Below are positions 1 through 53,391 of a DNA stretch of 64,000 nucleotides, in pieces. Location of the stretch: IMG/VR virus record IMGVR_UViG_3300045988_160394, positions 192,001 through 256,000 of that record, one strand, 5' to 3'. The DNA comes from a virus. The stretch's first letter is position 1. Each line of letters opens with the position of its first letter. The notes beneath the pieces were generated by a model. That model was not told where the DNA came from, made no database searches, and saw only the letters and a list, made by a program, of their open reading frames with translations. The position numbers and the translations under genes are program-made.

Positions 1-19
1 TTAAAAATAAGTCTTTCAT
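1..19 (-). CDS. N-terminal tip of a CDS continuing past the left edge (MKDLFL...)
   Basis: ATG at 17-19 (minus) lies downstream of AAGGAGG (plus 32-38). Only 6 codons are visible. Confidence 0.35.
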
Positions 20-20
20 A

Positions 21-554
21 TTATTTGTCATCCTCCTTATCTCTATCTATATAGTATTTCTTTATATCCTCTAAAACATTTAAATCCAATCCTAATTGCT
101 CAGGAGTATTAGGAACATTTAATCTATTAGAGAATATAGCTGTTGAAATAGGTCTTCTTATTAGAACTCATTTCTCTAAAGTAGGTTCTCAGCTTTTAAC
201 TAATACTGTACCATTCATTAATAGATTACCTATTATGTTTTGATTCACCATTCTATAATCAGATAATTCTATTAATTGATTATTGAATTTATGTTTATTC
301 ATAACTAAGTCATTAAAGTTATGATCTTCTATTACAGCACTTGAAGTATGAGATAAAGAACTTTGTGTTATATTAGACATATTCTTATCCATTTTAAATT
401 GAGTATATTCATCTATACATAAATTAATATTTCCATCATCTCTAACAATTACAGATGATTTAGATTTAGGATTAACTATACCTGTATCTCCTGAAATATC
501 TACTTTTCCTGTTTTATTTTTTACATCATTGAATAAGTTACTTTTATTACTCAT
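21..554 (-). CDS. hypothetical tail/baseplate-region protein, 177 aa, 2 in-frame TGA (168, 189)
   Basis: Track ORF 189..554 ends at a TGA. The same frame stays open through a second TGA to TAA at 21-23. I translated the whole extension and found no TAA/TAG. Confidence 0.75.
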
Positions 555-563
555 ATTCTCCTC

Positions 564-926
564 CTAAAAACCTAAATTACCTGAAAAAGTAGCAGGACCA
601 GAATGAGTATCATTGTTACTACTTTTTTCAGCAGTCAATCTACTTTTATCAACCAATCCTGTTATTCTTATTACTTTACCTACTTCTTCTATTTCTACAT
701 AGTCTCCAGTTTTAGGGAAGCCCCCTAAGATTCCTCTTAGAGAGCTTTTCTTAACTGGAACATCTTCTTTTATTGTTAATATTCCATCTATATTTTTATA
801 TGATATAGTACAAACATTTCTATCTTCATTAGTATCTAACACTTCTGCTAATTTTTCTTGAGATATATTATATTTGTTATATGGTGCAACAATATTGTCT
901 TTAAAAATGTTTTTCAAATTACTCAC
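564..926 (-). CDS. hypothetical small beta-rich tail/baseplate protein, 120 aa, GTG start
   Basis: Intact ORF with RBS AGAGGTGA before GTG 924-926 and TAG stop. Sits in the tail module. Function not recognisable. Confidence 0.7.
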   Translation of the reverse strand: MSNLKNIFKDNIVAPYNKYNISQEKLAEVLDTNEDRNVCTISYKNIDGILTIKEDVPVKKSSLRGILGGFPKTGDYVEIEEVGKVIRITGLVDKSRLTAEKSSNNDTHSGPATFSGNLGF

Positions 927-938
927 AATATTTCACCT

Positions 939-3900
939 CTATTTTATATTATTTGACTTTAATGGAGCTAACGCCATTATGTTAAATTTTTTTCCGTTCT
1001 TGTTATAACTGAATACACCATCACTATCTTTTATTATATTTGTATCACCAACATATTTATCTAAAACCTCTTTAAATTCATCTGAATTCTTTTTAACTTC
1101 TAATACCATTGAATAACCTGTAGATCTTCATTTACCCTTAGTATCATTTGCTCTTGCTCCACTTTTAAAAAGTATTTTACTATCTTTAATTTCTTCTTCT
1201 GCTAGCATTTTACTTAATAGCCATACTAACTCTTCAGAAACTAAAGGCATATCTATAATATTGTTTTCTATTTTTATAGGTACTGCTTCTGTTCCACTTT
1301 CAAAAGGTATGTTAATAGTTGCTGATGGTTTATCACTATGAGCTATAGAGAATCTTTTAGCCACAATAGCTGCTTTTATATTTGGATCGTTAACTAAGCT
1401 ATTAAGTTTTAATACTTTTGGATTTGTAGCTAATGTCATTGTACTAACATCAAGGATTTCATATTGCTTTAATATATCTTCTGAATAATCGTCGCTTCTT
1501 GGAGTTTTGATTCTAGGCTTAACCATCATTGCATATGATTCTTGGTTATTAGCAGAATATGAAGAAGAAACATTATTATAAATCTCTTGTAGTAATTCTT
1601 CTTCAGTTTTTTCATCTCCAACATCTACTCCTAAATCTTTTCTTCATTCTTGAGATAAATTATCTAATACTCCTTTATCGACGAATTGATCTAATATCCA
1701 ATCCATTACAGGTAAGTCTCCATCTAAGTCTTTTATACTTTTAACAAATTGTAAGACCATTCCTTGTATAGAATCATAACCATCTTTTACTGGCCAGCCA
1801 TATACAGAACCTTTGTGTCCGTTCATTCCAGCTATTAAAGGTTTATTATTTTTCTTCAATGGATAAACATCTATTGCTTGTATTCCTTCTAAAAATCTAG
1901 TAAAGACTTCTTGAGCATTATTAATCATAACATACATAACTGTTTCAATAGCTAAATCTATTAACAGCGTTGCAGGATTTAATTTTATTACTCCTTCAGC
2001 TACAGCTTTTAATGATTTTAATAAAGTTCCACCTCTTAGTTTATCAGCAACTTTAGCAAATTTGGTTACCTTAGCTGCATCATCTAATTCGAATATAGAT
2101 TTAAAGCTTTTAAGAAAGTCTCCTATAGAATCTATTTTTAATGTTTTATTATTAATAGCTTTTAATAGTTCTTCTTCATTTAATATTTTAGCAAGATCTT
2201 TATTTATCTTTTGAGCTTCTCCAAACTCTTTAGCACTCCATTTATCTAATATTGCTCTAGACTCTCTAGATAAAGACTTATATAGATTATTTTCTTTGCT
2301 AGATATTTTTTTAATATCTTCTGCAAATTCATGTAAGTTTAATTTACTATAATCTAAGTGTTTATCTAAATCTATTTTAGTTGATTTAATTTCTTTCAAT
2401 ATTTCTTCTAATTTCTCAGGAGTTATATCACTAGAAACATTACCTACTTTATCTTTTCCAAAAGCTTTCTTAAGAGCTTCTGCATATTCGTCTGCGTCTA
2501 TTCTAGAATAATGTAACAATGCTTCAGCAACATCATCTATCTTATCTAATGATCCTGGTTTAATTTTTGATAAATTGTTTATAGCATTATCTACTCCATT
2601 AAGATTTAAGGATTCTTTATTAGTAAATATGTTTAAACTTTCGAACAATGATTTAGCTGCTGGTCTATCTTTCAAGAATTCTTTCATACCTGTAGCATGA
2701 GATAAGTCTTCTGCTATATCTACTAGTTTTTCTGTTTTACCGTACATATCTTTACTTTTAGCAATTACTCTAGTAAGTTTACCATTAACCATATAAGCGT
2801 TAACTTTGTCGGCTATTGCTAAACCAACTCCAAATCCTAATAGTCCTCCAGCTGTAGATAATAAGTTTTGAGCTGCTACTTCGTATTGGTCCTTATGTCT
2901 TGCAATAACATCAGGCATTATAGAAGTAGTAAATCCTGTATCTATACTCATAGTATGAATAACTGCTTCAACTTCAAATTGTCCCATCATATCTTCATAA
3001 GTATCATGGATATAGATTCTGTCATGTGGTTTTATAGAAGGATCACCAAGTACAGCAACATCTCCTAAATACATATCTTTTACAGCATTCTTTAATGAGT
3101 TAGCAGTAACTCTTAAAGCAGTTGCTTTATTTACTTTATCATCATTAGGATCTGTAGCCCATTCTTCTGATAAATGGTTTGTAACTCCTAAATCAATCCA
3201 TCCATTACCTGCTGCTAATAATCCTGTATCAACAGTCATTGTTTTTTGATATTCAGGATATATATTCATATCTACATATATAGGTCCTACAGTAGATTGT
3301 TCTCTACCTCACCATGGAGATGATGATTGCCACATTCCTATTGCATTAGTTTTTAATTGAGCTTCTGATGCCTTTATAGAGTTATAAACTATATCAGTAT
3401 AAGAATCTATATAATGAAATTGTTGGAATGGCTTTCTTTTTTCTACTACTTTATTATCTACTAGTACGTAGTCATAAGCATAATAATGATTTGGTTTTCC
3501 TAAGAAGATAGTACTTCTAAAGCCGAAATCTCTTATAGCTCCTATATAGTTGATTCCTGCATTAGCAGATAAATGTAATAGATCCCAGAATGTTTTATCT
3601 TGTAATGAAGTATTTAATATTGGTGTTATCTTTTTTAAACTAGGACCATTAGTTACTTCATTAACTCCTTTTAATAAACTTTTATCTGAAACTTCATATA
3701 AGTTTTGCACTACTTCACCTTGTTCAAAAATACTTGTATATTTAGGATCTCCAAAATGAGTAATACCAAATATATTGTCATTAAACCATCTACCATCAGA
3801 GAAATAGTCAACTGCTTTTCTCCATCCTCCACATTTAGCTGTTAATAGTTTGGCTAATAAATCTCTAGGACTTTCTCCTCCTTTAGACCAGTTACCTCTA

Positions 3901-6900
3901 AAATCTTTAAACCATGTTACAGCTGATTGTGCAGCATCTATAGATACAGCTTCTATTTCACCAAAACCACTTAAAGGATTTGTAAGCTCATGTCCATCTC
4001 CTTGAGCAACTATTTGAGCTACTTCTGCTACTTCAACTTCAGCTACTTTTCCATTAAACACTACAGGTAATTTAGAACCGTCTCCTGAGTATCCCATTCT
4101 AACATGTATTCTTATACCTGGTTGTAACATAACTGTATCAGGTAGATTCTTTCTAGCTCTTATTCTTTTTTCTTTATCGAAATAAGCTTTAGGAGAGAAT
4201 ATAGAATCGAACACATCTCTTAATCCATATATATCAGCGTATTGTTGTGTAGTTGTTGAATCAGGTTCCATAGTATATGAATTAAATGTATTATTCATAA
4301 CTAATGTACATGTATCAGCTGCTATCTTTCTAGATTTAACAACGTTAATACTAGATATAGAGTTCATGTTATAGAAGTTGTCATGTAACTTCCAAGAACC
4401 AAATTTTCTACCTTCATCTACAAATACAACATAATAAGTAGGGAATGCTCTTGCCAATCTACCTCTTTTATCATTAACAAGCATATCATAGAATGAATGT
4501 AATATATATGCTCTAGGATCTTCAGCTGATTCTATGAATACATCTTTCATTAATGAGTTCATAACCTTCTGACTAGTAGATGTATAAGCTATAGTCTTTC
4601 CATCATTACTTAATGTCATATTTATTCCACCCATAGCAGATAGGAATTTTACAGCTGATATTTTTGAATCAGATAATCCTTCTCCAGATTCAATATAACC
4701 TGTTAAATTATTTAATGATTCATAATCTCTATATTTAAATAATGTATATAAGTCATTTGCATTTCTAGTTGTAGCTGCTATAAAAGGATATATTAATCTA
4801 GCACAAAAAGCTTGCTGAGATGCTCTGTGTACAGAATTCATTAATTCCTTCATTTCTTTTTGGTCAAAACCTAAAGCTTTTAATCCTCCTGTTACAGTCT
4901 TTACATCACTAAGATTAGGTTTTTTATCAGCATCTTTTCCTTTAAGTTCAGCATTTGAAAAAATCAATAAAGGATTACCCATATATAAAGGGTTTAACAT
5001 TCTACCTAATAAACCACCATCTTCTGGCATATCTGAGAATCCAAAACTTTCATAATAGATATCATTCCAGTCATTTGCTATTATATCTATTTCAGATATT
5101 AAAAGCCCATCTACTATCATCTTTCTTAAATGAAGTAATACATTTCTTAAGAAAGCTTCTGCATTATTTTCTATGCTTGTTAAAATAGCTGTTTTATATT
5201 TCTTTATTTCATCACTATTAGAATCTAACTTATTATAATATGGGTCTAAAAATCCTGCCTGTATCTTTTCATAAGGAGAATCTTTTTCTGATACATATGT
5301 TATATTTGATTCTTTCTGCATCATGTCAGAAATCAATTTAGGATCAGAATATTGTACTATTCTTCACGCTCCAAAAACTGTTCCTGTATCGATTCCTTCT
5401 TTTATACTTAAAGCATAACTAGATTTACCTTCTATTTTATCTGTAATACAATAAGGTAAAAATGATCCTTTATATTCCGAATCTGTTTGATCTTTATTAG
5501 GATATTCAGCTAATGTCATATAATGATTTGGATACCAATCTTCTTCTTCTTTTATTCCACTAGCATATTCTCTATTTCCTGATAAAGCACATCCTGAGGC
5601 AAATAAGAATCCTATCATATATTGAATTGGATTTGCTAACTCAAAAGAACTTTTACCGAAAGAATCAGTTATTGGATGCATTTTAATTGATGTAGCTGTT
5701 GGACATAGTATTTCAATTAATTCTTTACCTTCTCCTTTTGTAAATAAATTGTTTACTGCGTCGCTACAAACTTTTTTATAGTTATTTTTTCTAGTTAAGT
5801 CTTTACTGTTCTTTTCATAATCTATAGGCTTAGATAATATTTTATCTATTAAGTTTATACATTTAGTTCTTCTAGCTTTTATTTCTTCTGCGAAAGCATC
5901 TTTGTTGTCTTCTTTTATTTTTCTAATAGCTTCATCAACACATTTATCAGCTAAAGGAGCTTTCCATCCAGGTATGATTTCTCATCCATCAGTTACGTCA
6001 GTCATAACTAATTTTTTAATAGCCATAGAAAGTCCTAATCTTTCTTCTATTGTTTCTTTCTTATCCTTAGATAAGTTTTTCATGTTTTTCAGTTTAGAAG
6101 AAATTTCTCCTTCGATGTTTTTAATTACATCATAGTAAGAGCTACCTTTTGCATTATCTGCACTTTCTAAAGTTATTCCTGTATAAGCTTCTATTTTTCC
6201 TGTTAGTTCAGCTCCATATACGTCTTTAAATTTAAACATATGAGATGGATCATCTTCTGTTTTGAATAAGTTTTTAGCTAAACCTTCTTTAACCATTTTC
6301 TTTATTACTAAAGATGTATATGGATAAGCATAAACAATATAGAAATCTGGATCTGGATAACTTCTATTTTGACCAGCGTATTTAACATATCTAAATCCTA
6401 ATTTACCTAACTCTTCTAATGAAGGTAAATCTAAATCTGGATATAGTTCTACTTTTGATAAAGCATAATTTAAGTTAAAGTAATTTTTAATAGATAAGCT
6501 AGAACTTCCATTAAAGTCAACTCTTCCACCTTCTGCTTTTACATCCAATCTTCTTAAAGCTTCTCTTTGTCTTTGAGTTCTATCTACAGAAGTTAATCTC
6601 ATAAATATAGAATATACTCCAGGGAAACCTTCCATAGTATCTACTTCTATCATATCTATTAATACTTCAGATACTCCTAACATTGTAGTTAAATCAGATT
6701 TGATTTTAATAGGCCATGCAGGTAAAACTTTTCTATATGTTTTTGCAGTAGCAGATGCTAGATTAGGAAGAGAGTTTAATGCTGAAACTATAGTTATATC
6801 GTCAGTAACTAATTGAAATTCTAATTGTATATCTTGTCCACCTATATATTGAGGACCTTTACCTTCTATAGCTTTTAATGAAACTTCTGTAAAACTGTTA

Positions 6901-9893
6901 GCCATATTAGCCATAACATTAGTACATAGAATATTTGTTACATAAGGTACAAAAGGCATATTAGCTGGATTTTTGTAATCCTTAATATAGAAGTCTATTT
7001 CTTTATTGTATTTGTTTAATGGATCATCATCAGGTAAATCTTGAGGATTATCTTCTTGATTTATTCCATTAATTAAATTCTTTAATGCTGTAACGTCATT
7101 ACTTTTTCTTAATATAAAAGTATTTTTATAATGATCAGATTTTTCATCATCTGAAATATTTAATGTAGCTAATTTAAATATACTATCTTTATTAAATGTC
7201 ATTTCAAATGACACTCTCATACAATCATCTATAAATATTTCATTAGGTTTTAAAGGATTGTTTTTATCGTTCTTACCTAATACTTCTTTTATGTTAGACC
7301 AGTCTTCATTATTTATAGATTCTAAATTTAACTTTAAGCTAAATTCCCATATAAGATGATATATATCATTAGCATCTTTAGTTATTATTTCATTCATTGT
7401 TAAGTCTTTTAAATACTTAGGATTATTAAAGTCCCCTAATAAAGCATTTTGTAAAGGTAATATATAGTTCTTAGTTACACTTGATAAAGCTTTGTCGTTT
7501 GTATCATAAATAAATATTCTAGACTTATCTGTATTACAAATATTCTCTTCTCTTGATCCATCTCCTACAAATAGAGGAGGATTCATCTTTATAAAATGCT
7601 TCTTCTTAACAGCATTACCTATTAAGTTTTCTATTGCTATATTAAACTTTTCATTCTTATAGTTCTCAACTGAATCTAAAGCTAATGCTAATTCACTTAA
7701 TGATTTAACGAATGTTTTAGCATCATCACTTAAATCTATTGAAGAAGTTGGTGTTAATAAGTTTTCATCTCTATCTTTTTTTATTTGAAGAGCATTCGCT
7801 AACCAGTTTTCATCTGGTATATAAAAACTTATTTCTCCTTTATTTACTTTAGGACCGCACTCATACCACCATGGACCAACAGTATTTTTATGAGTATAAT
7901 ATTGTAGATTATACTCATAGCTATTAAATTCCATAAGACTTAAGTTCGTTCCAGCTATTATAGATCTTTGATAGTAATATCTGAATATCTCCCAGTTAAA
8001 ACTTTTTGCGAACATAGGAGGCATTTCTGCTAGTTTTTCATTATCTTCTTTACCTGTATCTTTATCTATAGGTATATCTGGCATATAAACTTTATAGTTA
8101 AATTCTTTTAAAGTTAATATTACTTTTAATAGTCTAGGGAAACCTTCTACGTTTTGAATACTCATATTTGATAAAGCAACAGCTTCTATTCCTAATACAT
8201 CATTTATATAACCGTTCTCTATAGGCAAGAAAGGAGCTATTTTGAATTGGGCTATTAAACTTCTTAAGCCATCCATTTTATATTCAAAAGATGTTCCATT
8301 AGGACTTGTATAAACATAGTCTATTCCATTTATACCAACGTCTTCGTAAAAGTATAATGTTAGTTCTAACATTTGCTCATTATGTCCTTTATGTTTAGCT
8401 TGAGTACCTTTACTTCTCATATTAGGTATTCTTTCATAAGTACATTGAGTAATGTTTCTTATACTTTCTGGCGGTATAAGCATTAAAGTATCTCCTATGA
8501 ATAATGCACAATTTCTAACTTTAGTAAAATCTATTCCTGTTAATTCTTTATGAAGTTTTAATCTATCTTCATAAGATTTTTCTGATATCTTATTGAAACT
8601 ATCTAACCATTCTATATTATTTCTATCATATGACCATAAATTAAATGAATCAGATATTCCTGAACCAATAGCTTGTAATTCTGGAGAGCTATTAAATTTA
8701 GGATTAGCTATAGTTGATTCTGTATTACATAAAACATATTTATTTAAGTTTATCCATTTACCTTCATATTTTACATAAACAACTCCTAGAGATCTTTTAT
8801 AGTTATCCATTCCATATGGTATATAATTATAATTTGTTATAGGAAGGTCTCCATAATACATATCCCATTCTTTAATCATAAAATCGACAGTATCTTTTAA
8901 ATAATAAATGCTGTTAAAAGTTCTATCATCATTATCTGAATTAGTTTTACTTGCTTTAATTCCGTTTGCATTTAAAACTAGAACTATCTCTTCAGATTTT
9001 TCTAAAACTTTTCTAGCAGCTTCTTGAGCTTTATAAGCATCTTTAATAGTGTTAGAAGTAGATTCGTCTTTTTGCCCCATAACAATAAAGTACTTATATC
9101 CATCTTTTTTATTTATATATGGATTAGCACTCATTCTAGTTATTATTTCAGTGTATAAAGTTTTATCTCCACTTTCTCCTACTTTTCATAAAGTTACTTT
9201 GTCGTCATTTTTTCTTTCTGTAACTTTACCACTTTTTCTATCGTAATTTAAGTTTTCATAAGTTATAAGAGTTTTACCATTAATCATCTCTTTCATTTTA
9301 CCGAAGGTTGTTTCTGTTACTCTTTTATCATAGTCTTCTTCTCTGCATAGTTGTACTTCATAGTGAGGTATTTCCATAGAGTCTATACCTAATGCTCTGA
9401 CTTGTATTGATTGTCCTCCACCCATCTTTTTAAAGAAGTCTCTAAAGTTATTGTACTTTACACTTTCAGAACCATTAGTAAACATTATAGGTTGATTACC
9501 ATCATTTATATCTTCTAATCTAAAAGACCATGTATCTCCGTCAAACTTATTTAAATCTCAAGTAGACCCATTTTTATCTATATCAGCTTTATTAGCTTTT
9601 AATACGAAAGCTCCTTCTTCTGAATAATGTCCTGGATTAGTAGAGAACGGTGCTTCTACATAAAAGTATGAATCTAATATTTCTTTATCAGAATATTCAC
9701 CATCTGTATTTTTATCTACGTATTGTTGATAAATTTCTGACATTAAATCTTCTTGCATCATTTCATCCATATCAGGAGTTAAAAACTTTTTAGGATTTAC
9801 AGTATTAAAGTCGCTTCTATTATTAGCCATACTAATATATTTTTCTTTATTCTCTTTTAGTTTTTTTAGTATGTCTTTATTATCTTGACCCAT
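939..9893 (-). CDS. giant tail/baseplate-associated multidomain protein, 2984 aa, 7 in-frame TGA
   Basis: Track fragments 1128..1529, 1644..3269, 3309..5336, 5364..5681, 5982..9134, 9186..9485 and 9558..9893 share one frame. Each is separated by a single TGA. All seven linkers were hand-translated without TAA/TAG, and no internal Met has an RBS. RBS AAAGGAGA precedes ATG 9893; true stop is TAG 939-941. It contains SIQVRALGIDSMEIPHY (staphylococcal-nuclease-like, about 9361-9410) and hub-like segments such as PGIRIHVRMGYSGDGSKLPVVFNGKV. Confidence 0.8.
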
Positions 9894-9917
9894 AGTAGTC
9901 TCCTTTCTATTTATAAT

Positions 9918-9937
9918 AGGTGCAACTTAATGCACCT
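9918..9937 (-). terminator. stem-loop after the RNAP-like giant gene (AGGUGCA/UGCACCU, 7 bp)
   Basis: Perfect 7-bp inverted repeat with a 6-nt loop, 5 nt past the TAA at 9942-9944. It is followed by an AU-rich tract and then the next RBS. Confidence 0.45.
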
Positions 9938-9941
9938 ATCA

Positions 9942-12900
9942 TTAAAAATTCCTATTTATATAATTCTCGATATCTCTATCTGTTACTGGCTGATCTTTTT
10001 TATTTTTTATATTCATGTTTATATTAACAGCTCCACCTACTGTAGCTTCTGCTGCTTTTGCCATGATCTTCTCCATATACTTTCTACCTTTTTTAGTATC
10101 CGCCTTTATATTTATTATATAACCTTGTTGAGTATTCCCTGTCACATAACCGCTATCTTTTTCCATGAATTCAGGAATGCTCATAATTTGTTGTGATTTA
10201 TTTTCTTTGCTAACTTCACTAGCTTGTTTATCATTTAAAGGATTACCAGAAGCATAGCCTCCAATCATTAATCCAGCTGCTAAACCTAATACTGCTTTAC
10301 CCATTCCTCCTACTCTTACATTTTTAACTCCATCAGCTAAAGATTCTGTCATACTTTCAGATAAACGTTTTATTTCTGCGTCATATTGTCCAGAGTTCAT
10401 TAGTTTGTTTTTTGCAATATTACTTTCTTGTTGAGCCATGCTTCTTTGAGCTATTTCATCTAAAGCATTTTGTAAGAAAGCAGGATCTCCATATCCCATT
10501 AAAGCTTGGTGTCTAGTTGCAAAAGTACTAGCTTCTTCAGCAGCTGCTCCAATAGAACCATTATACCAAAGTTTTTCAGTTCTTGCTCCATTTCTTCCAG
10601 TAGCTTCTATAGATGCTTTATAAGATAATGCTAGTTTGTCATGAGACATTTCTTTCATTCTTCCTAAGAATTTTTGTTTCATTGCATTAGCTCCACTTAT
10701 CATAGGGTCAGCTTGTTTTTCTATATTAGCTCTTTCTTCTTTGCTTAATATAAGATGTCCCATATGTTCATATGATTTCTTAAATATATCATCACCATAA
10801 TCATCTAACCAACTGCCTAATTCATTTAATGATTCTGTAGATGCTACTGTTCCTTTATTATTAAAAATATCATTCATTGCTTTTTTGAAGTTTTTAATTC
10901 TATTATCATCATATACTCCACCAGCTAATTTTTTAGAAGAGATTACTCCTTGTTCAGCTGTATCTAAAGCATTCCAAACATAGTTATTAAAAGCTATTTC
11001 TTCAGGAGAAGTATTTCTAAATACATCAGCTAACTTAACAGCATTTAAAGCTTGGTTAACTGAACCTGTTGCAGCTAGTCCTGTTTTAGCCATCATTTCT
11101 TGTGCATACTTATCTACAGACATTCTTTTAATAGCTGTAGCTTCTAATTTACTAAACGTATCATCATCAACATTACCTTTTATAACAGTTAAAGCTTCGT
11201 CTAGTATTTTGCCAGGCTCTGATGCTTTATTTAAATCTATATCAAATTTTTCATCTTTAGTTATGTCTTTAGCCAAACTTAATAAATTAGTTGTATCTTC
11301 ACTTAGCTTATTAAACTCTTTTACAGTAGGCATATGAGCAACAGTTGTAAAAGTCTTTTTACCTAGAATAGATTCTCCGCCTGGAACTAAAACCATGTTA
11401 TCTGGATTAGATAAGTTTTGATTTTTTATAAAATCTTCTTTAATAGTTTTAGCTGCTTTATCTTGCCAATATTTATTATCTGTAACAGCAACACTATACA
11501 TAGCTCTTTCTTGTGCAGCAAAATAATCATATACTTCACCTGACATTAAATTGTTTTCTATTGCATAGTTTCTACCACCATTTTTATTAGCTAATTCATA
11601 TAAAGCTCCATCTACTACTTTCCCATCTTTATCTCTATATTCAATTCTGAATGAAGATAAAGAGTCACCGTCTTGGTCGGCATTAGCTTTTAACATTGTA
11701 GATACAGATATCTTAGTTTGATTACCTTGTAATCTTTTATCTAAGAATACTCTAGTTTGGTTTATAGAATTATTCCTTGTATTTGGATAACGGTCAGTTA
11801 TATCAAAAGTACCATATTCTAATAAGAAATCATCCATTTCACTTTCTGTTTTAAATCCAAACTTCTTTAATGTTTCTGGTTTATAATATCCCATCTTTTC
11901 CATCTGTTCTTTTGATACGTATTTATAATCAAAATAAGCTTCACCATTAGCTTCTCATTCAGCTATTGTTTTACCCATTATTTTAGATTTTTTAGTAAGA
12001 TCATCTCCAACAGTTACATCTATACCTGCCTCTTTAGCTGCCTCTACTAACTCTTTAGTCGTAGTATCAGTTATTAATCCAGATGATTTAAGTCTATAAG
12101 CAGTTGCATTTATTTCTATTTTACTAGCATTATGATGCATACCATTCTTACCAAATATAGAATCTCTTATACCTTCTATAGCTTCTGTTCTATTTCCTAA
12201 AACTCTTTGGAATAGTCTTTCATATTCATCATCTTGTTTCCCAGATAAAGATTCTAATTCTTCTATACTATGTTTAAGCTTATTTAATTTTTGATGTCCT
12301 ACATCTCTAACTTCCTCATCTGCTATTTTCATACCAGTACCAGGGACAGCTAGATATCTATTCTCCTGACCAAACTTTTCACCTAAATCTACAACTATGT
12401 TTCTTTCTACTAAATCATCAACTTTAAAGTTAACATCTTTGATATCAATAACTTCAAAGCCTTTTTGTTTCATATCTTCTAAACTTAAGTTATATCCTCT
12501 ATTAAAGCTATTAGCTTTCATAGCCATTTGTATTTTATATTCTTTTTCTGCACCTTCTACACCTAATTTAATCTTATATTTTTTAGCGTATTCATGAATG
12601 TCTTTTAAATGAGCGTATCTTTCTGTTTTAACCATATTATCTGTTAGTAGTTCATCAGTGTATGGATTAAAGAATTGATCATCTTTAAATTGGTCTAATA
12701 AACCTTTTAATGATTTCTCTCCTATAATATCTTTAGAAAAAGTAACAGTACCATCAGCATTTTCTGTTAAATGATCTTTGAAGGCATGTGAGCTTAACAA
12801 TGTTTTAGTATCTAGTTCTCCATTATTAATCATTTTTTCAATTTGTTCTGCATGAGCTTCTGTCAAGGATACCCTTTCTAATATAGATAATTCTTGGTCT

Positions 12901-38503: not shown

Positions 38504-38554
38504 GTGGTACGACCTCCTTTATAATTTATTCTTTTATTTAATTTTTAAACTATA

Positions 38555-39781: not shown

Positions 39782-39824
39782 TATTCAAATTCCTCCTCAA
39801 AGAATCTTATTTTCTATTTTTTTT

Positions 39825-39847
39825 GAGGGAGCTTTTTAAACTCCCTC
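39825..39847 (-). other. 7-bp GC-rich stem-loop (GAGGGAG/CUCCCUC) in the leader of the MCP gene
   Basis: Perfect inverted repeat with a 9-nt loop. On the minus-strand RNA it is followed by an A-run rather than a U-run, so it is more likely a stability/processing hairpin than a terminator. Confidence 0.4.
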
Positions 39848-39896
39848 TTTCTATTTTTTATTATATAAAAGATATACCAATAATTTTCACAATTGA

Positions 39897-41360: not shown

Positions 41361-41456
41361 TCCTTGTATTTAATTTCTTTTTAATGATTTCTTATTTTAG
41401 TATATTCATACATTTGAAAATATTATCTTTTCGTTGCTTTTATTATATTAAAGAGA

Positions 41457-42908: not shown

Positions 42909-45030
42909 CTGCCTTTGGTTTTGTATATGTTATTTCACAATTACAGAAAGAATGATAAGCTGGTATTTCTTCTACTGTAAAAGCTTTTGTATCTATAACG
43001 TCTTTATTTTCATTAGCGTCTTTATCGCTGCTAAATTTAATATATGCTTTATCTATTCCAACAAACGCTCCTGTTTTTACATATGAATACCAATAAGATT
43101 TTCTAGCATAATAATCTTCTAAGAATCTAACTTTATACTCATATTTGTTGAAAGCTTGTTCTACATCAGCATCTTCTTTATCTAAATCTTTAACTATGTT
43201 TTTAAATATATGTTTTAAATCATTAGAAAACTCTTCATAGAATTTAGTTAATACTATTTTATCTTTAGGCATAGATACTTTCTTAACATTAGTATTTATA
43301 TCTTTTAAAGCATCTACCATACCTTGATTTGAATTCATATCAACTATTCTTTCTAATAAAGTAGATATTGTTTCAGCTGTTAATGGAAGTATTAAATCAT
43401 TATCTTCTCCATTCATTATGTCATCGCAAGCATCCATATATATAGAATAGATTTCTTTTGTATATACCTTTTTATTATATTCACTATTAAACGCTTCTTT
43501 TATTTTTGCAGATGTTTTACCATGTTGATTAGCAGGTCTATTATTATTATCTACAGCTTTATTAGGGCTTGAACTCTTAGAGCTTCTTGGAGATTTATTA
43601 GCTGTTGATCCTTTTGATGCAGAACCACTATTATTAGCATTTCTACTTTGAATGCTCATTTTAGCAATCTCTTTTTGATGTTCTGCTGTTCTATCAATTT
43701 CTTTCATTCTTGCTTTAGTATCAATGTAGTTTTTATATAATTTTTCTTCATCATCAGGACTATCTTTGTATCCCATTTTTCTTCTAGATTCACTAATGCT
43801 TGTAACATTAGATTGATACTTAAGCATTTCATGATTTTCTTTTTTAACTTTAGTCTCTAATGAGATTTCTTCAAATTCATAATCTACTATATCTTCTTCA
43901 TTTAATATAGGATTAAATCCATTTTCTAATAGTAATTCACTTAATATATATTCTCTAATAAAGATTTCCATTATTCTTTGAATATATTTAACAGTATCAT
44001 GTATTTGAGCTTCCATAGAATCTGCATCTTGTTTAGCTCCTCCTCTACCCATTTGAGAAGCAGATACTCCTAATGCAGAGAATACTCTATTTTCAAAATA
44101 AGTTAAATATCCTTGTGCATTTAAAGCAGTTCCTTCAGCTCCTATAGCTTTTATAGTTGTTCTTTCATTAGTAATTAATATTCCATCCAATGTTGAATTT
44201 TCTACTTCTCTTTGTGCCTTTTGTATTTCTGGATCAGTTCCTCCCATACCTGGTTGAGGTAATCCTATTATCCATTGATATAAAGGCATAGAAAATCTAT
44301 ATATTAATGCACTGACGTTACCTTCTATTTTTCTTAATAGCTTAACGTCTTCTAATGCTGCTATTACTCTAGGTGTACCAAAAGAGTTATTTGCATCTTT
44401 ATCTAAATACATATGAATAACATCTCTAGGATAAAATTGTTTTTTATTTTTACCATATCCTTGTTCGTATTTTAATACGTTACCATTTAAATCTCTTTTA
44501 ATTCTTATAGACGCAGGATCAACTCTAAAATATCCACCAACTATTTTATCAGCAAATATAGGTTGTAATCCTGGCATACCAGGAATAGCATCTACTCTTT
44601 TCTTTATTAAAAAAGCATTAGAATATTTAACTAAGTCGTCTGCTATTTCTTGAAAAAGTATATCCATTGGTTTTTGAGTAGCAAAAGACATCATTCTAAA
44701 TCTTTTTTCTAAATACTCAACTCTATCGTCTTGACCTTTTAAAGATGCTCCTTCTTTATATATTAAATAAGAATATTTACTAAAAGATATTTTTATATAA
44801 GAATCAGCCTCTGAAGCTTCTTTTATTTCTCAAAGATTATATTCAGGTCTTTCAAATCTTTCTCTACTATCAGATTGATTAGCTATAGCACCTATGGCTT
44901 TAACAACAAAATCTTTTATTTTAGCCTTATTTATTTTTATAGGTCTGGATGTAGTTACTTTTTCTTCAACAGGAGTTTCATCTAAATCAATACTTTCTTT
45001 TCGTTTGAACAGCTTGTCAAACAAATCCAT
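42895..45030 (-). CDS. portal protein, 711 aa, 1 in-frame TGA (44830)
   Basis: ORFs 44830..45030 and 42895..44694 are joined in frame; the 45-codon linker was hand-translated. Size, position between TerL and the protease/scaffold, and portal-like blocks (FYPRDVIHMYLDKD, LIYRFSMPLYQWIIG) support the call. TAG stop. Confidence 0.75.
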
Positions 45031-45055
45031 GTTATCACCTGTCTTTCATATTTAA

Positions 45056-45358
45056 TTATTTAACTCTTGCTAATATATCAGTCTCTTTTAATAGCAAGTA
45101 TTTTTTATTATCAAATTGTATTTCAGTTCCAGCATATTTATTGTATAATACTTGATCTCCTACATTAACTGAAGGAATTAATAACTGTCCATTGTTTAGC
45201 ATTCTTCCTTCTCCGATTGCAACAACTCTTGCCATATCTGTTCTTAAAGATTGTTCAGTTCCTTCATTAAGTAAGATTAATCCACCTTCTGTTTTTTCTT
45301 CTTTTTGTTTAACCTCTATTTCTAATAATAAATTATCTCCCATTGGTTGTAGATTCAT
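45056..45358 (-). CDS. groES: GroES-like co-chaperonin (Hsp10), 100 aa
   Basis: Collinear with bacterial GroES along its full length: MNLQPMGDNLLLE..., TEGGLIL, ARVVAIGEGR, NVGDQVLY, KETDILARV. RBS AGGGAAGG. TAA stop. Confidence 0.85.
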   Translation of the reverse strand: MNLQPMGDNLLLEIEVKQKEEKTEGGLILLNEGTEQSLRTDMARVVAIGEGRMLNNGQLLIPSVNVGDQVLYNKYAGTEIQFDNKKYLLLKETDILARVK

Positions 45359-46334: not shown

Positions 46335-46399
46335 TATTAACAGCTCCTTTCATATAAAAGTATATTAGCGATGATATAATAGAATACCATCGCTAATTA

Positions 46400-49300
46400 C
46401 TATCTACTAAATCCACCTCTTCTACCAAAACCTCCAGAACGAGAACCTCAACCACTACTCCTTCCACCAAATCTATTAGACATAGCTTTAGCTGATCTAT
46501 AATCCATATCAACCTCTACTCATGTTTGTCTATCTCCAGGTAAATCATCTCAATCATTATTAGCATAAAAATCAGATATTCTAGAGTCTGTATTAATTCT
46601 ATTAACAGAAGTAGCATACATTCCTGCTCCACCCATTTGTTTATTAGATATATGGAAGTCTGAAGTAGTTTTTATATCTTCAACGACACCTGTTAGTTCT
46701 TTAAATTCCATAACCATTGCTAAGTGAGCTAAACCTAAAGCGTCGACAAAGTGTTCGTTTTCTGATGTATATTGAGGTATACCTGCTTTAGACATTTGAA
46801 CAACTTCGTAATCTGTTAATTGTTTAGCTAATACATCGTCGTAAGGAGATAATATAATTCTATCTCTTTCAAAAGCTATTTGTAGTTGGTTAACCATAAA
46901 TGGTTTAAAAGGTTTGCTATCTAATTCTTTAGTTATAGGGTCCATTATTTGAAGCTTAGTAGAAAAGTTACACTTCTTAACTTTAGCTTTTAATCCTGTT
47001 TGTGGATTTTCATCACCTATGATATGCAAGCGTTCTATTTGATATTCTCCTGCTCCTGCATCACAATATATTCAGCTAGGATTATATAGAGCATTTAATT
47101 CAACTATTAAATTAACAGCTGCATCATAAGAATATTCACTTCTAGGAACTTCTACTCTTTTTAATACTTTAAATTTATTAAAGTTTACATCATAATCTAA
47201 TATTAAAATAGAAGATGAAGCTCCATATTTATCTCAGTCAACCCCCATAGTTCTAAAAACATTTCTAGGAGGAGGATTTGTTCTGTCATACAATTCCATG
47301 AAGGGGTATAATCCTGTTTCTTGTAGTTTTTCTTTTTGGAAATAATCTAATTCATTATAAGCATAATTATAAAACTTTTGAGCAGCATCTAATTTATTCT
47401 TATCAAATACCCCTGTTTCTTGTGTACCGAACTCAGCTAAAACTTCATGCACATAACCTTCAGCTGTTAATTGAGCTTTAAGTTCTGCTTCCATTTGAGC
47501 ATTCCAGTTAGGGTTATGTGTAGATGGATGATAATGTTGAGAATATCCCATACTCTTATCTGTACACATTTGATAGAACTTACTACGTTTACCTAAAGGT
47601 GTAGATGAAACTGTTATACCTATTTCAGGTCTCTCTATAGCAACAGCAGCAACAACTTCGAAACAATATTCACTCATGAAGTCAACCTCATCTATGAATA
47701 TCCAGTCTGCTTTTTGTCCTCTTATAGAAGCTGCATCATCACCAGTAGTAAATCCTAGTATCATAGATCCGTTAGCAAATTCTATTTTTGCAGGGTTCTT
47801 TGTAGAAGCAACTACTGTTTGTTTTAATAATGGAGATTCTGCTATTAACTCATTTAATCTTGTAAACATGTTTCTGATTTGGTTTTCATATGGAGCAGCC
47901 ATAAGTATTCTAAAGTTCTTATTACTACTAGCCATATATAACATCTCAACTACCATTGTTTCAGTATTATGAGTTATAAAGTCTTCTGCTACAAAGTTCA
48001 TTGTTAATGGTATAGATAAATTATATGTTTGCATCTCTCCTAAGGATTGTATTGAAACTATTTCATCAAAGATAAATTCACCATCTGCAAAAGCTTTTAA
48101 ATCTTCATTATCTAATACATTAGCGAATTCTTTTAATCTACTCCTTTGGATATCATAATTCATTCTTAATCTAACATTAGGATTTGTTTTACACAAATCA
48201 GCTTTAGATAATCCTTGTTTAATTCTATCTTCTTCTACGAATTCTAATATCTCTTTTGGTAGATAAGTATCGTATTTATTATTTATTAAAGCTAATTCAT
48301 AAGCTTCTTTCATAACTTTCTCTTTAGAGAAAATACCAATCTCTTTATAGAACTTAATAACGTTTATAGAATCTGTTATTAAAAGCTGATAACAAACTTT
48401 AATTGTTCCATTATATTTATTTTTCTTAGTTACAACATAGCTATTAATTCCAAACTTTAATAATAAATGTTGTATATCAGAAATAAGTTCTCTTGATACA
48501 GAACTATATCCTATTTGTTGTTTATTATTTCTAGCATATGCTCAACCATCTGTAGCGTATAATCTAGATAAGAATAAAGCTGTATCGTTTTTACTTAATT
48601 TAAATATATCTTTAGGAACGAATTTAGTATGAGATGTTTTCCCAAACAATTCGTGCTTTTCTAAAATCTCTTTAATATTGTTAGGATAGATTCTATTATT
48701 CCTGTTATGTTTTTTTACAATATTATAATCTATGTTTCTATTGCTTTTATATTGTACTAATTCACAGTCAAAATAGTTAACTGCTCTTTCTAATTCACTT
48801 CTTATCTCTTCAGAAGCTGTACAGAATCTAATAGCCTTTGTAGAGCAATTACCGTCACCAATCATGTAAGCTAATAGTTTTATTTCATTTTCGCTCATGT
48901 AGTGATTACCGAAATATCCTAAGTTACCAGCTAATGCTACTCTATCTCCTGGTTTTAAGAAATCTATTGCTTGTCATCCTTTAGCAGTAAATAATGGGTG
49001 ATTTCCCGTAGCATCTATGTGCCTACCTGACTTTGTAGTAACTCTAAAGACTTCTTTAATTCCGTTATCTGTTATTTCATTAGTAAAGTGAGGACTCATC
49101 TTATAATCATCTGTCATAGTTACAAAATGAGCTCGACCTTGTTTATATAACTCTTCTGCTGTTACTCTTTCTCCTGTTTTAGGATTAAATACTCTAGTAT
49201 GACCAGGGATACATTTCCCTATACGTCTTCCACATCTATATACTTTTCTAACACTTTTGTCTCTTAACATTTCAACTTGATATCATCTAGCTGTTCAAGG

Positions 49301-49411
49301 CACGTATTCTTTTTTTCTAGGATCGAAAGTTTTTAAAAAAGCTTGAGACCATAATATAGGGTCATCCATAATTTCTTTAAGCTTCTTGGACTGAGCTCTA
49401 TTTATTGCCAC
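46400..49411 (-). CDS. terL: terminase large subunit interrupted by an intein, 1003 codons (about 587-aa extein), 9 in-frame TGA, GTG start
   Basis: Fragments 48974..49270, 48542..48898, 47234..48313 and 46550..47029, plus the linkers and a C-terminal extension, are all co-framed (triplet-scanned). RBS AAGGAGTG precedes GTG 49409-49411; stop is TAG 46400-46402. Motifs: PWTARWYQVEML (both W are TGA); Walker A CGRRIGK|...|T, split by the intein; Walker B ADWIFIDEVDF; nuclease-domain MGVDWDKYG (W is TGA). Confidence 0.9.
47966..49213 (-). mobile_element. intein (416 aa) with a LAGLIDADG homing-endonuclease domain, inserted in the TerL P-loop
   Basis: It starts with Cys right after the Walker-A Lys (RRIGK/CIPGHTRVF). 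Hint block B is TGNHPLFT. LAGLIDADG motifs are LLAYMIGDGN and FLSRLYATDGW. It ends FVAEDFITHN, followed by Thr, which restores GKT. It carries its own in-frame TGAs (48974, 48542). Confidence 0.85.
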
Positions 49412-49434
49412 TGTTTTCACTCCTTACATGTTGA

Positions 49435-50076
49435 TTAGAAAAATAAGTCAAAAGGTTCATCATCAAATTCTAATAATATTTCTCTTTTGTATGTTCTTTC
49501 ATCTAAATACTTTTTAAATTCTTCTATTTCTGATTCATTATATGCTTCACTAGCTTTTGCTATATATCTAGTAATATAACAACTGCTACATAACTCTTTA
49601 GTTAATGGAGTTGTTCCTGCTATTGATATACTAACTTCTTCATTATTTGCTCATATAGTACTTAGTTTGAAAAATGATAGTAAATCATCAAAAGCTCTTC
49701 TAGAAAAATAAGGCTCGTCGACTTTTAAATGTTTTAATCTTAATCCTCTAGCGTCTCCTCTTTCTATTTCGTTAATACTTTTTATATACAATGTATTATC
49801 ATTAATAATAACTTTGTCATTTACTAATTCATATTCGCAATCTAAAGCAGAGCATATTTCTTTAATAGTTTGTAAGATATGTTTTTTTTGTGCTACATAA
49901 CTGCAACAGAATAACACATCAGATTCATTGTTCGCTTGCATATCTCTTACTGTTGATAAACATAAAGCAGATGTTTTTCCAACTCTTCTACTTCCTAATA
50001 ATATTTTTATTTTAGAATTGTTATCATATATAAAATTTCTAATAGTATCTTTACTTAAAATATCCATTACATTCAT
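49435..50076 (-). CDS. P-loop NTPase resembling a terminase ATPase domain, 213 aa, 1 in-frame TGA (49651)
   Basis: Walker A LLGSRRVGKTS (compare TerL CGRRIGKT) and Walker B LKHLKVDEPYF. AAAGGAGA lies 10 nt before the ATG at 50076; the track start at 50145 overlaps the upstream gene. The frame stays open 71 codons past the TGA to TAA 49435-49437. Confidence 0.65.
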
Positions 50077-50116
50077 TATTTTAATATCTCCTTTATTATC
50101 CTGTTTTTTATTTTTA

Positions 50117-51157
50117 CTATATGCGATGCATATATTGAGCTTCATTCCCCATAATTGATTGTTGTAAATTGTATTGTGACATCTTAGCTAATTCCATACC
50201 AGCTTGTCTCATTGTAGCTAATTGTCGAGTATCATGAAATTCAGCTTCTCCAAATGTTTGAAATCTTTGAGAACTATTCATTTCTCTAGTTACTTTTTGT
50301 AATGAGTCTACACTACTAACGACCATAGAAGGTAACTGTTTAGCTAACATTACAGGGAATGCTGCTCCTTGAAGAACCTCTCCCGTTACGAACATGGCCC
50401 CCGCTTTAGCAGCTGATTTAACAACACCATTACCTTGATTTCTAGCATCTTTATAATCAGAGATAGCCACACCAGTGTTTATTATTACTCCGACGCTTCT
50501 TTTATTAAATATCTTTTTAAATACAGATTCTTCTAGTTTATCTTCTGCTTCATTCATTCCTTCTTTAGTTACATCTTCTATAACTTCTTTAGTTTCTTCT
50601 TTTATCTTTTCCTTAACTTTCTTTTTAGTTTGTTTTTTACTTTCTTTTTCTGCTTCTTTTCTAAAAACAACATTATGCTCTTTATCATATTCTTTTGTAA
50701 ATTTATTTATTTCAGAATCGACATCAAACAATTCTTCAGGCTTACTATATTTAATCCTTTCTCCTTCGTAATCATAAAACAGTCCTTCATTTTCAGAAAG
50801 GAATCTTTTCATACTTTCAAGATCTTCATTACTTTCTATTACGCCACTTCTTCTTGCTCTATTAATAGCACCTTGTGCGTCAAAATAATCAGTATCTTCT
50901 CCTAATATATTGTTTATCTTTTCATACAAAGGATTGCCTTTAAGATTATTTAATTCATTATGTTCTAATAAAGAAGCTCGTTTCTCATTTATAGCTTTTT
51001 CTCTGTCTTTAAGCATCTTTTCATAAGCTTGATCTTCTTGTCTAGCATTTTTTCTCTTATCATTTTTTCTATGTCTTCTTTTCCATTTAGAATAAGATAG
51101 CTTACCTCCACCAGCTACATACTCTTCATACAAGGCTTTTAATTCTTCTTCATTCAT
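50117..51157 (-). CDS. hypothetical protein, 346 aa (charged, K/E-rich centre)
   Basis: Intact ORF. Its ATG overlaps the upstream TAG region. TAG stop. Confidence 0.6.
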   Translation of the reverse strand: MNEEELKALYEEYVAGGGKLSYSKWKRRHRKNDKRKNARQEDQAYEKMLKDREKAINEKRASLLEHNELNNLKGNPLYEKINNILGEDTDYFDAQGAINRARRSGVIESNEDLESMKRFLSENEGLFYDYEGERIKYSKPEELFDVDSEINKFTKEYDKEHNVVFRKEAEKESKKQTKKKVKEKIKEETKEVIEDVTKEGMNEAEDKLEESVFKKIFNKRSVGVIINTGVAISDYKDARNQGNGVVKSAAKAGAMFVTGEVLQGAAFPVMLAKQLPSMVVSSVDSLQKVTREMNSSQRFQTFGEAEFHDTRQLATMRQAGMELAKMSQYNLQQSIMGNEAQYMHRI

Positions 51158-51158
51158 A

Positions 51159-51836: not shown

Positions 51837-51865
51837 TTAATCAACTCCTTATGTTTATAGTAATA

Positions 51866-51889
51866 AAGTGCAGCTATTAAACTGCACTT
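51866..51889 (-). terminator. stem-loop after 51895..52344 (AAGUGCAG/CUGCACUU, 8 bp)
   Basis: Perfect 8-bp inverted repeat with an 8-nt loop, 5 nt past the TAA. The tail is AU-rich. Confidence 0.5.
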
Positions 51890-51894
51890 ATAAA

Positions 51895-52344
51895 TTAGAT
51901 AAATGGTACTCCAGGTAAATTGAAGTTACCGTATCTATCTCTATATAATCCTCCACCAGTAACAACTCTACCAGCAACTCCTACAGTAAACGCAGTTCCA
52001 GCAACTTTCTTTGCACTGATATGACCATTAACCATATGCCCCTTTTTAATAGCTTCTAAAGCAGTAGCACCAGACTCTCTTGCTTTAAAAGAATCAGTTA
52101 TCCCTTTAAATACTTTTGCATTACCAACAGCTGCTCCCATTTTATAGCTTTCTTTTTGCATAAGTTCATTAGTTAATTCATGCCCCATCTTTAAAGCTTC
52201 TCTTTTAGATTTAGTAACTCCTTGTGCTAAAATCCCTGCTGCTGATCTTTTAGCAAGTCTACTTTCAGCTTTATTACTCGCTGCTGAAAATAAACCAGCC
52301 GCAAATTCAGTCATACCTTCAGCTATTTTTCTTCCTTTACTCAT
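51895..52344 (-). CDS. hypothetical Ala/Gly/Lys-rich protein, 149 aa
   Basis: Intact ORF with RBS AGAGGTGA and a TAA stop. Confidence 0.6.
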   Translation of the reverse strand: MSKGRKIAEGMTEFAAGLFSAASNKAESRLAKRSAAGILAQGVTKSKREALKMGHELTNELMQKESYKMGAAVGNAKVFKGITDSFKARESGATALEAIKKGHMVNGHISAKKVAGTAFTVGVAGRVVTGGGLYRDRYGNFNLPGVPFI

Positions 52345-52356
52345 TTAAATCACCTC

Positions 52357-53019
52357 TTATAAATTATCTGGTCTTTCCTCTACAATAAATTCAGTACTAA
52401 TAGCATTATCAAGCATCTCATTAACAGATAAAGTATTACCTTGTTGTCCTTTTTGTGATCTTCTAGTTCCAAGCATATTATCAAGAATCTTATCTTTTCT
52501 ATTTAAACATCTTTCATATAGTTCATAAGCTTTAGATACTTCTGGTCTAGTATATTCTTCTCCTGATTCAGTCATACCTGCAACTACATCTGTTATAGGC
52601 AATTGTTCTTTAGACAATATAGCTTTACATCTTTCTAACATTACATCTATATTAATTAATTCAGCTACTAATGTTTGATCAGTAAAGCTGGCTTCGTCTA
52701 GATTGTAATCTTCCATATAATAGTTTCATCTTGTTTCTATCATGGCCGTTTCTACTGGACATTTTTCTCCTAAAGGAGCTAAATCATATTCCAATAAACC
52801 ACAAGTAGCCGCATATGGACAATCACTTTGTTTACAAACAATTGGCACTTTAGCAAATAGGCCTGTCTTAGTAGATAACATTGCCATAGCTGCTTTTTTA
52901 GCCTCTACTCCAACAACACTATGTCCTCAAAAGTTATTTGACATAGCTTGTATGAAACCTTCTTTTTTAGCTATTGCATCCTCTCTTTCTTGTAGAGAAA
53001 TCTCCTTATTTATTTCCAT
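52357..53019 (-). CDS. hypothetical Cys-motif protein, 220 aa, 2 in-frame TGA (52927, 52726); weak small-terminase candidate by position
   Basis: The ATG at 53017-19 opens MEINKEISLQERED..NNF-W-GHSVV..CKQSDCPYAATCGLLEYDLAPLGEKCPVETAMIETR-W-NYYMEDYN, running into track ORF 52357..52716 (hand-translated). TAA stop. The antisense track ORF 52742..53260 is a shadow of this gene. Confidence 0.65.
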
Positions 53020-53025
53020 AATATA

Positions 53026-53391
53026 TTACTCACCCCCTTCCCATAATTTACTATCATCATCTTTATATATTTCTTTTTCTAATTTTTCAACCATTTCTTC
53101 TGATAAGTTCGTTTCTCCATTTTTTATAGAATATTCTTCAGCAGTAAAGTTATATAAGATATTAAAATCTTCTGATCCAAATACTTCATTAAAAACCTTG
53201 ACGTTTTTTAAAACATATCTACTACTTTCTATTTTATTAATATCATCTATATATCTATGAGTTGTCATGCTACCTGTTATTAATATTTCTTCTTCTCCAT
53301 TTTCATTCTCTATTAATTTAGTTTCAAACGTAAGACGCCCTTTGACTCTCTTTAATTGTTTATCTCCTGTTACTATCTTTAGGTTCGCCAT
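53026..53391 (-). CDS. hypothetical protein, 121 aa; first gene of the minus-strand module
   Basis: Intact ORF with RBS AAGGAGGA and a TAA stop. It abuts the divergent intergenic region. Confidence 0.65.
   Translation of the reverse strand: MANLKIVTGDKQLKRVKGRLTFETKLIENENGEEEILITGSMTTHRYIDDINKIESSRYVLKNVKVFNEVFGSEDFNILYNFTAEEYSIKNGETNLSEEMVEKLEKEIYKDDDSKLWEGGE

Follow-up and report, generated by a model that had tools for sequence, protein, structure and literature searches.

The question raised by the locus considered here is whether the TGA triplets that interrupt the structural genes of a large phage act as stops or as sense codons, and how their confinement to one block of genes is to be explained. 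The locus is a 64-kb stretch of DNA, hereafter the window, of 29% guanine-plus-cytosine (GC) content, which corresponds to positions 192,001 to 256,000 of the IMG/VR virus record IMGVR_UViG_3300045988_160394. The explanation that we favor, and to which we assign a probability of approximately 0.8, is that TGA is read as tryptophan (Trp) in the late genes of this phage, that the host uses the standard code, and that the code is switched in the course of infection. The window comprises two divergently oriented gene modules, and the sign of the GC skew flips at approximately 54 kb.

21 to 53391, minus strand: structural (late) module of 31 contiguous genes, in which TGA is read as Trp
53392 to 53689, no strand: intergenic region between the divergent modules, at which gene strand and GC skew both change over
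53690 to 64000, plus strand: TGA-free module of small genes, ten complete and one partial, with TAA or TAG stops

When only TAA and TAG were taken as stops, the open reading frame (ORF) map of the minus strand resolved into 31 head-to-tail genes (positions 21 to 53391) containing 54 in-frame TGA and 78 TGG codons, each gene being terminated by TAA or TAG. The TGA at 51166 probably lies 5′ of the position at which its gene truly starts; without it the count is 53 TGA codons, spread over 16 genes of the window. The first bases of these codons, all on the minus strand, are as follows.

52929, 52728, 49653, 49297, 49285, 48976, 48544, 47236, 47074, 46552, 46522, 46450, 45959, 45821, 45413, 44832, 37897, 37420, 36378, 36363, 33955, 29620, 28474, 27005, 25963, 22968, 22716, 22638, 22461, 22332, 21546, 21429, 20355, 20349, 20163, 19641, 19569, 19311, 19104, 18572, 18362, 18260, 16328, 11957, 9560, 9188, 5984, 5366, 3311, 1646, 1130, 191, 170

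An initial annotation, made from the letters of the window alone, had arrived by hand at about 53 TGA against about 75 to 80 TGG codons, and at approximately 30 merged minus-strand genes that all end in TAA or TAG; the recount agrees with these figures, and genuine in-frame TGA codons end at the three sites which that annotation had singled out (44830, 33953, and 29618). Its claim that TGA is a sense codon throughout the minus-strand module is likewise upheld by the length of the open frames. TAA or TAG occurs off frame once per 9.5 codons, and 11,229 non-overlapping codons stay open past the first TGA of their respective genes (log10 P of approximately -544), so that chance is excluded. The comparison of code tables that had been suggested as a check raised the fraction covered by open frames of 100 codons or more from 0.90 under the standard code to 0.998 with TGA as a sense codon and restored the genes to full length. 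The use of TGA is uneven across the late genes (chi-square p = 0.003).

The residue inserted at TGA was deduced from homologue alignments, in which the following three late genes are of particular relevance.

19210 to 25575, minus strand: 2121-amino-acid (aa) tail protein gene, with 13 TGA and 9 TGG codons
31286 to 34216, minus strand: tail sheath gene (phrog_16991, E = 3e-59), with one TGA at 33955
46400 to 49420, minus strand: large terminase (TerL) gene containing an intein (PHROG terminase match), with 9 TGA and 3 TGG codons

Window queries carrying X at each TGA position were compared with 80 IMG/VR relatives translated under the standard code. Among the 1007 alignment cells opposite TGA, W was found in 470, Y in 93, F in 93, G in 18, and a stop ('*') in none; in control columns, where Trp is encoded by TGG, W occupied 67.5% of cells. 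Across 120 homologues, the 13 TGA sites of the 2121-aa tail protein were occupied by W in 1278 of 1560 cells and by glycine (Gly) in none, seven of these sites representing an invariant W, while the sheath TGA at 33955 aligned with W in 37 of 40 relatives and the TGA columns of TerL were mostly W. The TGA codons which had been reported initially within recognizable TerL motifs were correctly placed, both in the terminase itself (residues 42 and 46 in PWTARWYQ and residue 783 in GVDWDKYG) and in its intein (residue 149 in the GW motif of Hint and residue 293 in the DGW motif of LAGLIDADG). Compared codon by codon, 17 of 24 TGA codons of the window are matched by TGG in L091, a relative of standard code, whereas in recoded relatives they face TGA or TGG almost exclusively, and strains of 97 to 98% nucleotide identity differ at TGA sites only by TGA/TGG swaps, which occur in both directions. 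Because relatives present W or TGG opposite TGA, and because strains exchange TGA for TGG only, TGA is, as judged from these alignments, a Trp codon in the late module, as the initial annotation had proposed.

The restriction of this reading to one module could be followed beyond the window, the sequence of which is identical to part of ENA ERZ1756024 NODE_19 (263,172 bp). Near-identical contigs of 261 to 263 kb were found in several other samples, the sister contigs of 261 to 264 kb including ERZ27278024 k141_5150, ERR11474454_101, and SRR22802544_455, and 13 to 24 contigs from independent assemblies were read per single window protein, nine to twelve of which exceeded 200 kb. Exact-protein look-ups extended the window by approximately 9.4 kb on each side, giving an analyzed span of 82.9 kb with the following content.

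Minus strand, structural: 35 genes, 63 in-frame TGA, 90 TGG
Plus strand, presumed early: 41 genes, 0 in-frame TGA, 36 TGG

Within the window, the ten complete plus-strand genes contain 15 TGG codons and the partial last gene contains one, with neither an in-frame TGA nor a TGA stop, precisely as the initial count of 16 had indicated. The plus-strand module runs for at least 9.4 kb past the window, and its 41 genes include a single TGA stop, which is discussed below. The contrast between the modules is pronounced (Fisher p = 7.6e-8 with the flanks and p = 0.001 for the window alone), and, since out-of-frame TGA is equally frequent in both, it is not compositional. The proposal that recoding is specific to the late module therefore holds over 83 kb, in which approximately 25% of the 76 genes carry in-frame TGA, all of them in one module. 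As Trp in the plus-strand module is encoded strictly by TGG, this module is readable by unmodified standard-code translation. It is presumed to be early because of its divergent orientation, its small unannotated genes, a match to the Tad8 anti-defence family in the plus-strand flank, and its surplus of terminator-like hairpins (13 versus 3.2 expected). Shine-Dalgarno-like motifs are located upstream of 38 of its 41 genes (93%), and a sigma-70 promoter scan was uninformative (56 sites versus 58 expected).

The same module-restricted pattern recurs in two diverged recoded relatives, which were found via homologues of one plus-strand protein.

L099, 67% identity in the plus-strand protein: late, 16 TGA and 6 TGG; early, 0 TGA and 16 TGG
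L100, 62% identity in the plus-strand protein: late, 10 TGA and 8 TGG; early, 0 TGA and 14 TGG

Across the three recoded lineages, TGA accounts for 0 of 66 Trp codons of the early modules and for 41 to 73% of those in the adjacent late modules.

A further assertion of the initial annotation, that TGA never serves as a stop, is correct for the window, probably fails 8 kb beyond it, and is weak as evidence. The plus-strand gene at 71915 to 72262 (19338 to 19685 in L082) most simply ends in TGA and is the sole plus-strand gene to do so; the gene that follows starts 20 nucleotides (nt) before that stop, and reading the TGA as Trp would add 15 residues. A similar early-module TGA stop is present in L100, and such stops, if real, would fit a standard-code reading of the plus-strand module. 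Among low-GC standard-code relatives, 24 of 314 stops (7.6%) are TGA (1 of 28 in the standard-code relative L101), a rate at which the 42 window genes should include approximately three TGA stops, and their absence is only weakly significant. As just 7.6% of the stops of the lineage are TGA, the lack of TGA stops was dropped as a signal.

Two further observations concern termination. TAG serves as the stop of 19 of 41 plus-strand and 9 of 35 minus-strand genes, a borderline contrast (p = 0.06), and accounts for approximately 16% of stops in standard-code relatives. In the minus-strand genes, the base following the codon is T for 5 of 63 sense TGA codons versus 27 of 89 TGG codons (p = 0.005, gene stratified), and T follows 25 of 35 true stops in the window phage. 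This bias was not found in five recoded relatives, for which reason it was not used as evidence of release-factor competition.

The code of the relatives places the recoding in an evolutionary context. All 80 IMG/VR relatives are standard-code around the portal gene, and further relatives were fetched from ENA, Logan, and NCBI, of which L089 to L091 share ten genes with the window phage. The resulting graded series is as follows.

L091, 65% tail-protein identity, ten genes: 0 TGA, 48 TGG
Window phage, same ten genes: 24 TGA, 25 TGG
L089, 80% tail-protein identity, ten genes: 27 TGA, 27 TGG
L090, 72% tail-protein identity, ten genes: 39 TGA, 15 TGG
L102 (same genome as L099), tail genes: 40 TGA, 17 TGG
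L103, tail genes: 39 TGA, 19 TGG

L001 and L101, like L091, have no TGA among their Trp codons, and the window phage is separated by roughly the same distance from L001, which uses the standard code, as from L092, which is recoded. Because equally distant relatives differ in code and because the share of TGA is graded, recoding is, on the sequences compared, both recent and patchy, having arisen from standard-code ancestors, and it agrees in this with what Borges et al. reported for other clades (bioRxiv 10.1101/2021.08.26.457843). In the window phage, approximately 40% of Trp codons in the virion-structure genes are TGA, and sister genomes in which TGA makes up 0%, approximately 40 to 50%, and approximately 70% of Trp codons show the pace at which TGG is replaced. 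A stretch of 10 kb further along a recoded relative held only more recoded tail genes and no transfer RNA (tRNA). The most recoded gene seen in the clade is a tail-fibre-like ORF of 1884 aa in L102 (14928 to 20582), with 17 TGA and 2 TGG codons.

Based on its gene content, the window phage is a jumbo, contractile-tailed (myovirus-like) member of the Bacillota-associated 0305phi8-36/MTATph1 lineage. PHROG matches on the minus strand identify the large terminase, portal, major head protein, and tail sheath, the homologues of which, together with a genome of at least approximately 200 kb, characterize the 0305phi8-36-like phages. The portal shares 37 to 40% identity with its counterparts in Moorella phage MTATph1 and Bacillus phage 0305phi8-36 and 35 to 38% with the products of genes on 215- to 260-kb "plasmids" of Bacillus thuringiensis and Paenibacillus. 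A megablast search of 12 kb of the window against GenBank phages gave no match, nor did an exact 60-mer taken from the end of the window give one in IMG/VR, and single-sequence scans of IMG/VR returned no locus for the tail protein and one for the sheath; searches for protein homologues were used instead.

Leads as to the host come from the labels of assemblies. The recoded relative L103 is located on contig JBOFSH010000242.1 (116,967 bp) of an NCBI assembly that bears the label Paraclostridium dentum (GCA_051651445.1); the gene annotation of L103 there is fragmented, and its protein name lacks the "MAG:" prefix (MAG denoting a metagenome-assembled genome). A standard-code homologue of the tail protein is labelled as a Romboutsia timonensis MAG, and both species belong to the Peptostreptococcaceae. 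From these labels, the Bacillota-host family of the phage, the TGA-free module, and the rarity of TGA stops, we infer that the host reads the standard code; it possibly belongs to the Peptostreptococcaceae, for which the assembly labels are circumstantial leads. The lead of greatest use is this possible tie to a named, cultivable genus. If GCA_051651445.1 derives from an isolate, the clade would provide the first culturable system in which a TGA-to-Trp code switch could be watched, an undertaking that would be aided by relatives ranging from 0 to 72% TGA among Trp codons.

The most likely course of infection is that of the published code-switch model, in which the phage would infect a Bacillota host of standard code, possibly one of the Peptostreptococcaceae, and the TGA-free genes would be expressed first by the unmodified host machinery. 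The cell would then be made to read UGA as Trp, most likely by means of a phage tRNA with a UCA anticodon and perhaps with the assistance of an action against release factor 2 (RF2), and this decoding would permit the synthesis of the terminase, portal, sheath, tape measure, and giant tail proteins. Full-length products of the late genes arise only if TGA is decoded as Trp; a suppressor tRNA or other switching factor is presumed, as is the early/late timing of the two modules.

Several observations weigh against this explanation. No tRNA and no Rfam family was detected (ARAGORN and Rfam) either in the 83 kb or in the loci fetched from relatives, and neither release factor 1 (RF1) nor tryptophanyl-tRNA synthetase (TrpRS) was seen in the 83 kb. 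This span represents 83 kb of a genome of approximately 263 kb. The plus-strand genes gave no functional family match in searches. The host labels derive from assemblies that may be bins, and the MAG that contains the recoded relative L092 has no label more specific than "Bacilli bacterium." Lastly, TGA is lacking from 14 or 15 of the window's 31 late genes, that of the major head protein among them, and any gating of late expression can therefore be only partial.

The late-gene TGA-to-Trp phenomenon, its model, and its evolutionary path have already been published, and the window phage matches every feature that can be tested at the sequence level. Borges et al. described gut phages that read TGA as Trp, have predicted standard-code Firmicutes hosts and standard-code close relatives, and concentrate their recoding in structural and lysis genes (bioRxiv 10.1101/2021.08.26.457843). 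In that survey, depletion of TGA stops in low-GC genomes was found to precede recoding, suppressor tRNAs were present in only 35% of TGA-as-Trp genomes, and in-frame TGA was found in approximately 90% of the genes of TGA-as-Gly phages of TGA-sense hosts; among its named clades (Jade, Sapphire, and Agate), Jade carries a module for code change that comprises a suppressor tRNA, TrpRS, and RF1 (bioRxiv 10.1101/2021.08.26.457843). Like these phages, the window phage aligns TGA with Trp, concentrates it in structural genes while other modules remain standard-compatible, and combines a large low-GC genome and depleted TGA stops with predicted Firmicutes hosts and close relatives of standard code. 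Unlike the Jade phages, with which, as with the other clades, it was compared by description only, it has no module of suppressor tRNA, TrpRS, and RF1 in the 83 kb.

Recoding in crAss-like phages has been treated by Yutin et al. (PMC7886860) and by Peters et al. (PMC9523058); among jumbo phages, a survey from 2026 reported it in hallmark genes (PMC13037316). The window phage resembles the crAss-like and Lak phages as an uncultivated gut phage with a stop codon reassigned in late genes and the same proposed logic of suppressor-tRNA gating; those phages, however, are podoviruses of Bacteroidota, and megaphages, with mostly TAG-to-Gln and some TGA-to-Trp reassignment, whereas the window phage is a contractile-tailed relative of 0305phi8-36. 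With 0305phi8-36, MTATph1, and the phage-like plasmids it shares portal homology (35 to 40%), sheath and terminase family matches, and a genome size in the range of approximately 180 to 260 kb, but these are distant and, as judged from their full-length deposited annotations, presumably standard-code. TGA is also a sense codon in phages of Mollicutes (TGA as Trp) and Absconditabacteria (TGA as Gly), in which it occurs in nearly all genes rather than in approximately a quarter of them within one module, the residue in the latter phages being Gly rather than Trp. The window phage differs from published cases only in its lineage and in its unseen switching machinery. An experimental demonstration of a TGA-to-Trp code switch appears to be absent from the literature, the validation found being the proteomic proof of TAG-to-Gln recoding by Peters et al. 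(PMC9523058).

Three other explanations were weighed against a late-gene code switch. That TGA is not Trp at all, but Gly (code 25), selenocysteine, cysteine, leaky readthrough, or a product of pseudogenization or assembly error, is hardly credible: beyond the in-frame TGA itself, nothing speaks for it, and Gly is nearly or entirely absent from the alignment cells that Trp dominates, the 53 sites in 16 genes are accompanied by no Rfam selenocysteine insertion sequence (SECIS) or other element, independent assemblies of many samples gave the same sequence, and the frames are open for thousands of codons. Code 25 was accordingly rejected, as the TGA columns are not glycine, and the alignments, together with the many independent assemblies, led to the rejection of selenocysteine, of pseudogenes, and of an assembly artefact. 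It is very unlikely that the host natively reads TGA as Trp, in the manner of Mollicutes-type Bacilli, with the TGA-free module a coincidence or a recent acquisition. A GC content of 29% is like that of many TGA-as-Trp bacteria, the label "Bacilli bacterium" of the L092 MAG could, under GTDB-based naming, include Mollicutes-like orders, and TGA stops are almost absent; nevertheless, such a host would leave unaccounted for the lack of TGA from early modules adjacent to heavily recoded late ones and the occasional TGA stops of the former. The nearest relatives, moreover, are standard-code, the cultured hosts of the family are Bacillus and Moorella, the assembly labels point to Paraclostridium and Romboutsia, Shine-Dalgarno use is strong, and in-frame TGA occurs in approximately 25% of the 76 genes here versus approximately 90% in the phages of TGA-sense hosts surveyed. 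Genome-wide native use of TGA as Trp was rejected on the early genes without TGA in three lineages.

The remaining alternative accepts the switch but dispenses with a phage tRNA, the host tRNA-Trp(CCA) reading UGA, for example through disabling of RF2 combined with natural UGA leakiness, a property that has been reported for Bacillus subtilis. The lack of a tRNA in 83 kb of the genome and in approximately 200 kb of the loci of relatives favors this scheme, as does the scarcity of suppressor tRNAs among published TGA-as-Trp genomes, and the rarity of T after sense TGA, set against its frequency after true stops, could reflect competition with a release factor. The tRNA search, however, covered one third of the genome, and jumbo phages usually cluster their tRNAs; the bias in the following base is absent in five recoded relatives; and near-cognate decoding is probably too inefficient for proteins with 13 to 17 TGA codons. 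This scheme is consequently considered unlikely, and the proposal that in this clade of jumbo phages associated with Peptostreptococcaceae an action on RF2 or on the host tRNA-Trp makes the infected cell read UGA as Trp, no phage tRNA being needed, rather unlikely. A code switch in a standard-code host, most likely with a phage tRNA, remains the preferred explanation.

Besides the terminase, sheath, and 2121-aa tail protein genes, the late module includes the following features.

49435 to 50145, minus strand: short P-loop protein of 236 aa, just upstream of TerL, matching the terminase family phrog_2 in its ATPase part (E = 1e-6)
45056 to 45358, minus strand: GroES/Cpn10-like co-chaperonin, between the terminase region and the portal, with a Pfam Cpn10 match on the L099 homologue
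42895 to 45030, minus strand: portal protein (phrog_9232, E = 2e-50), with one TGA at 44832
38114 to 42908, minus strand: four head genes, with 0 TGA and 15 TGG, including the major head protein (39781 to 38555)
939 to 18782, minus strand: two giant proteins of the virion, one of 2946 aa with 5 TGA codons and one of 2984 aa with 7

The four head genes form a TGA-free island inside the recoded module. In TerL, the intein, composed of a Hint domain and a LAGLIDADG homing endonuclease, sits directly after the GK of the Walker A motif, and Pfam Intein_splicing, LAGLIDADG_3, and Terminase_6N were matched on fragments from relatives. Two conserved Trp residues of the intein are encoded by TGA in the window, and in L001, which reads the standard code, the same terminase gene contains 12 TGG codons and lacks TGA. 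The 2121-aa tail protein is probably the tape measure, as inferred from its size and position, and its homologue in standard-code L091 has 25 TGG and no TGA codons. The giant virion proteins yielded a faint Pfam DUF6046 match on one fragment, and strains swap TGA and TGG in their genes.

It had been anticipated in the initial annotation that gene callers applying the standard code would misannotate this phage, and in the calls available from ENA, Logan, and NCBI the genes of TerL, of m2, and of the tail are indeed split, the terminase, tail, and baseplate genes being broken into pieces of 30 to 600 aa. Annotation, clustering, and host-range work on such phages consequently needs TGA to be translated as Trp in the structural module. 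The degree to which TerL is fragmented in public gene calls varies between relatives.

A minor feature was observed in the plus-strand module, where an intergenic leader of approximately 105 nt is repeated at 61437 to 61542 and 62089 to 62198, with a partial copy at approximately 60940 to 61025. The leader has no Rfam match. Its copies precede three consecutive small genes, at least two of which encode zinc-ribbon-like CxxC pairs, and they share an identical ribosome-binding and start context, a weak consensus fold, and a CCTGATGATGR box, which has five matches in the window versus 0.05 expected.

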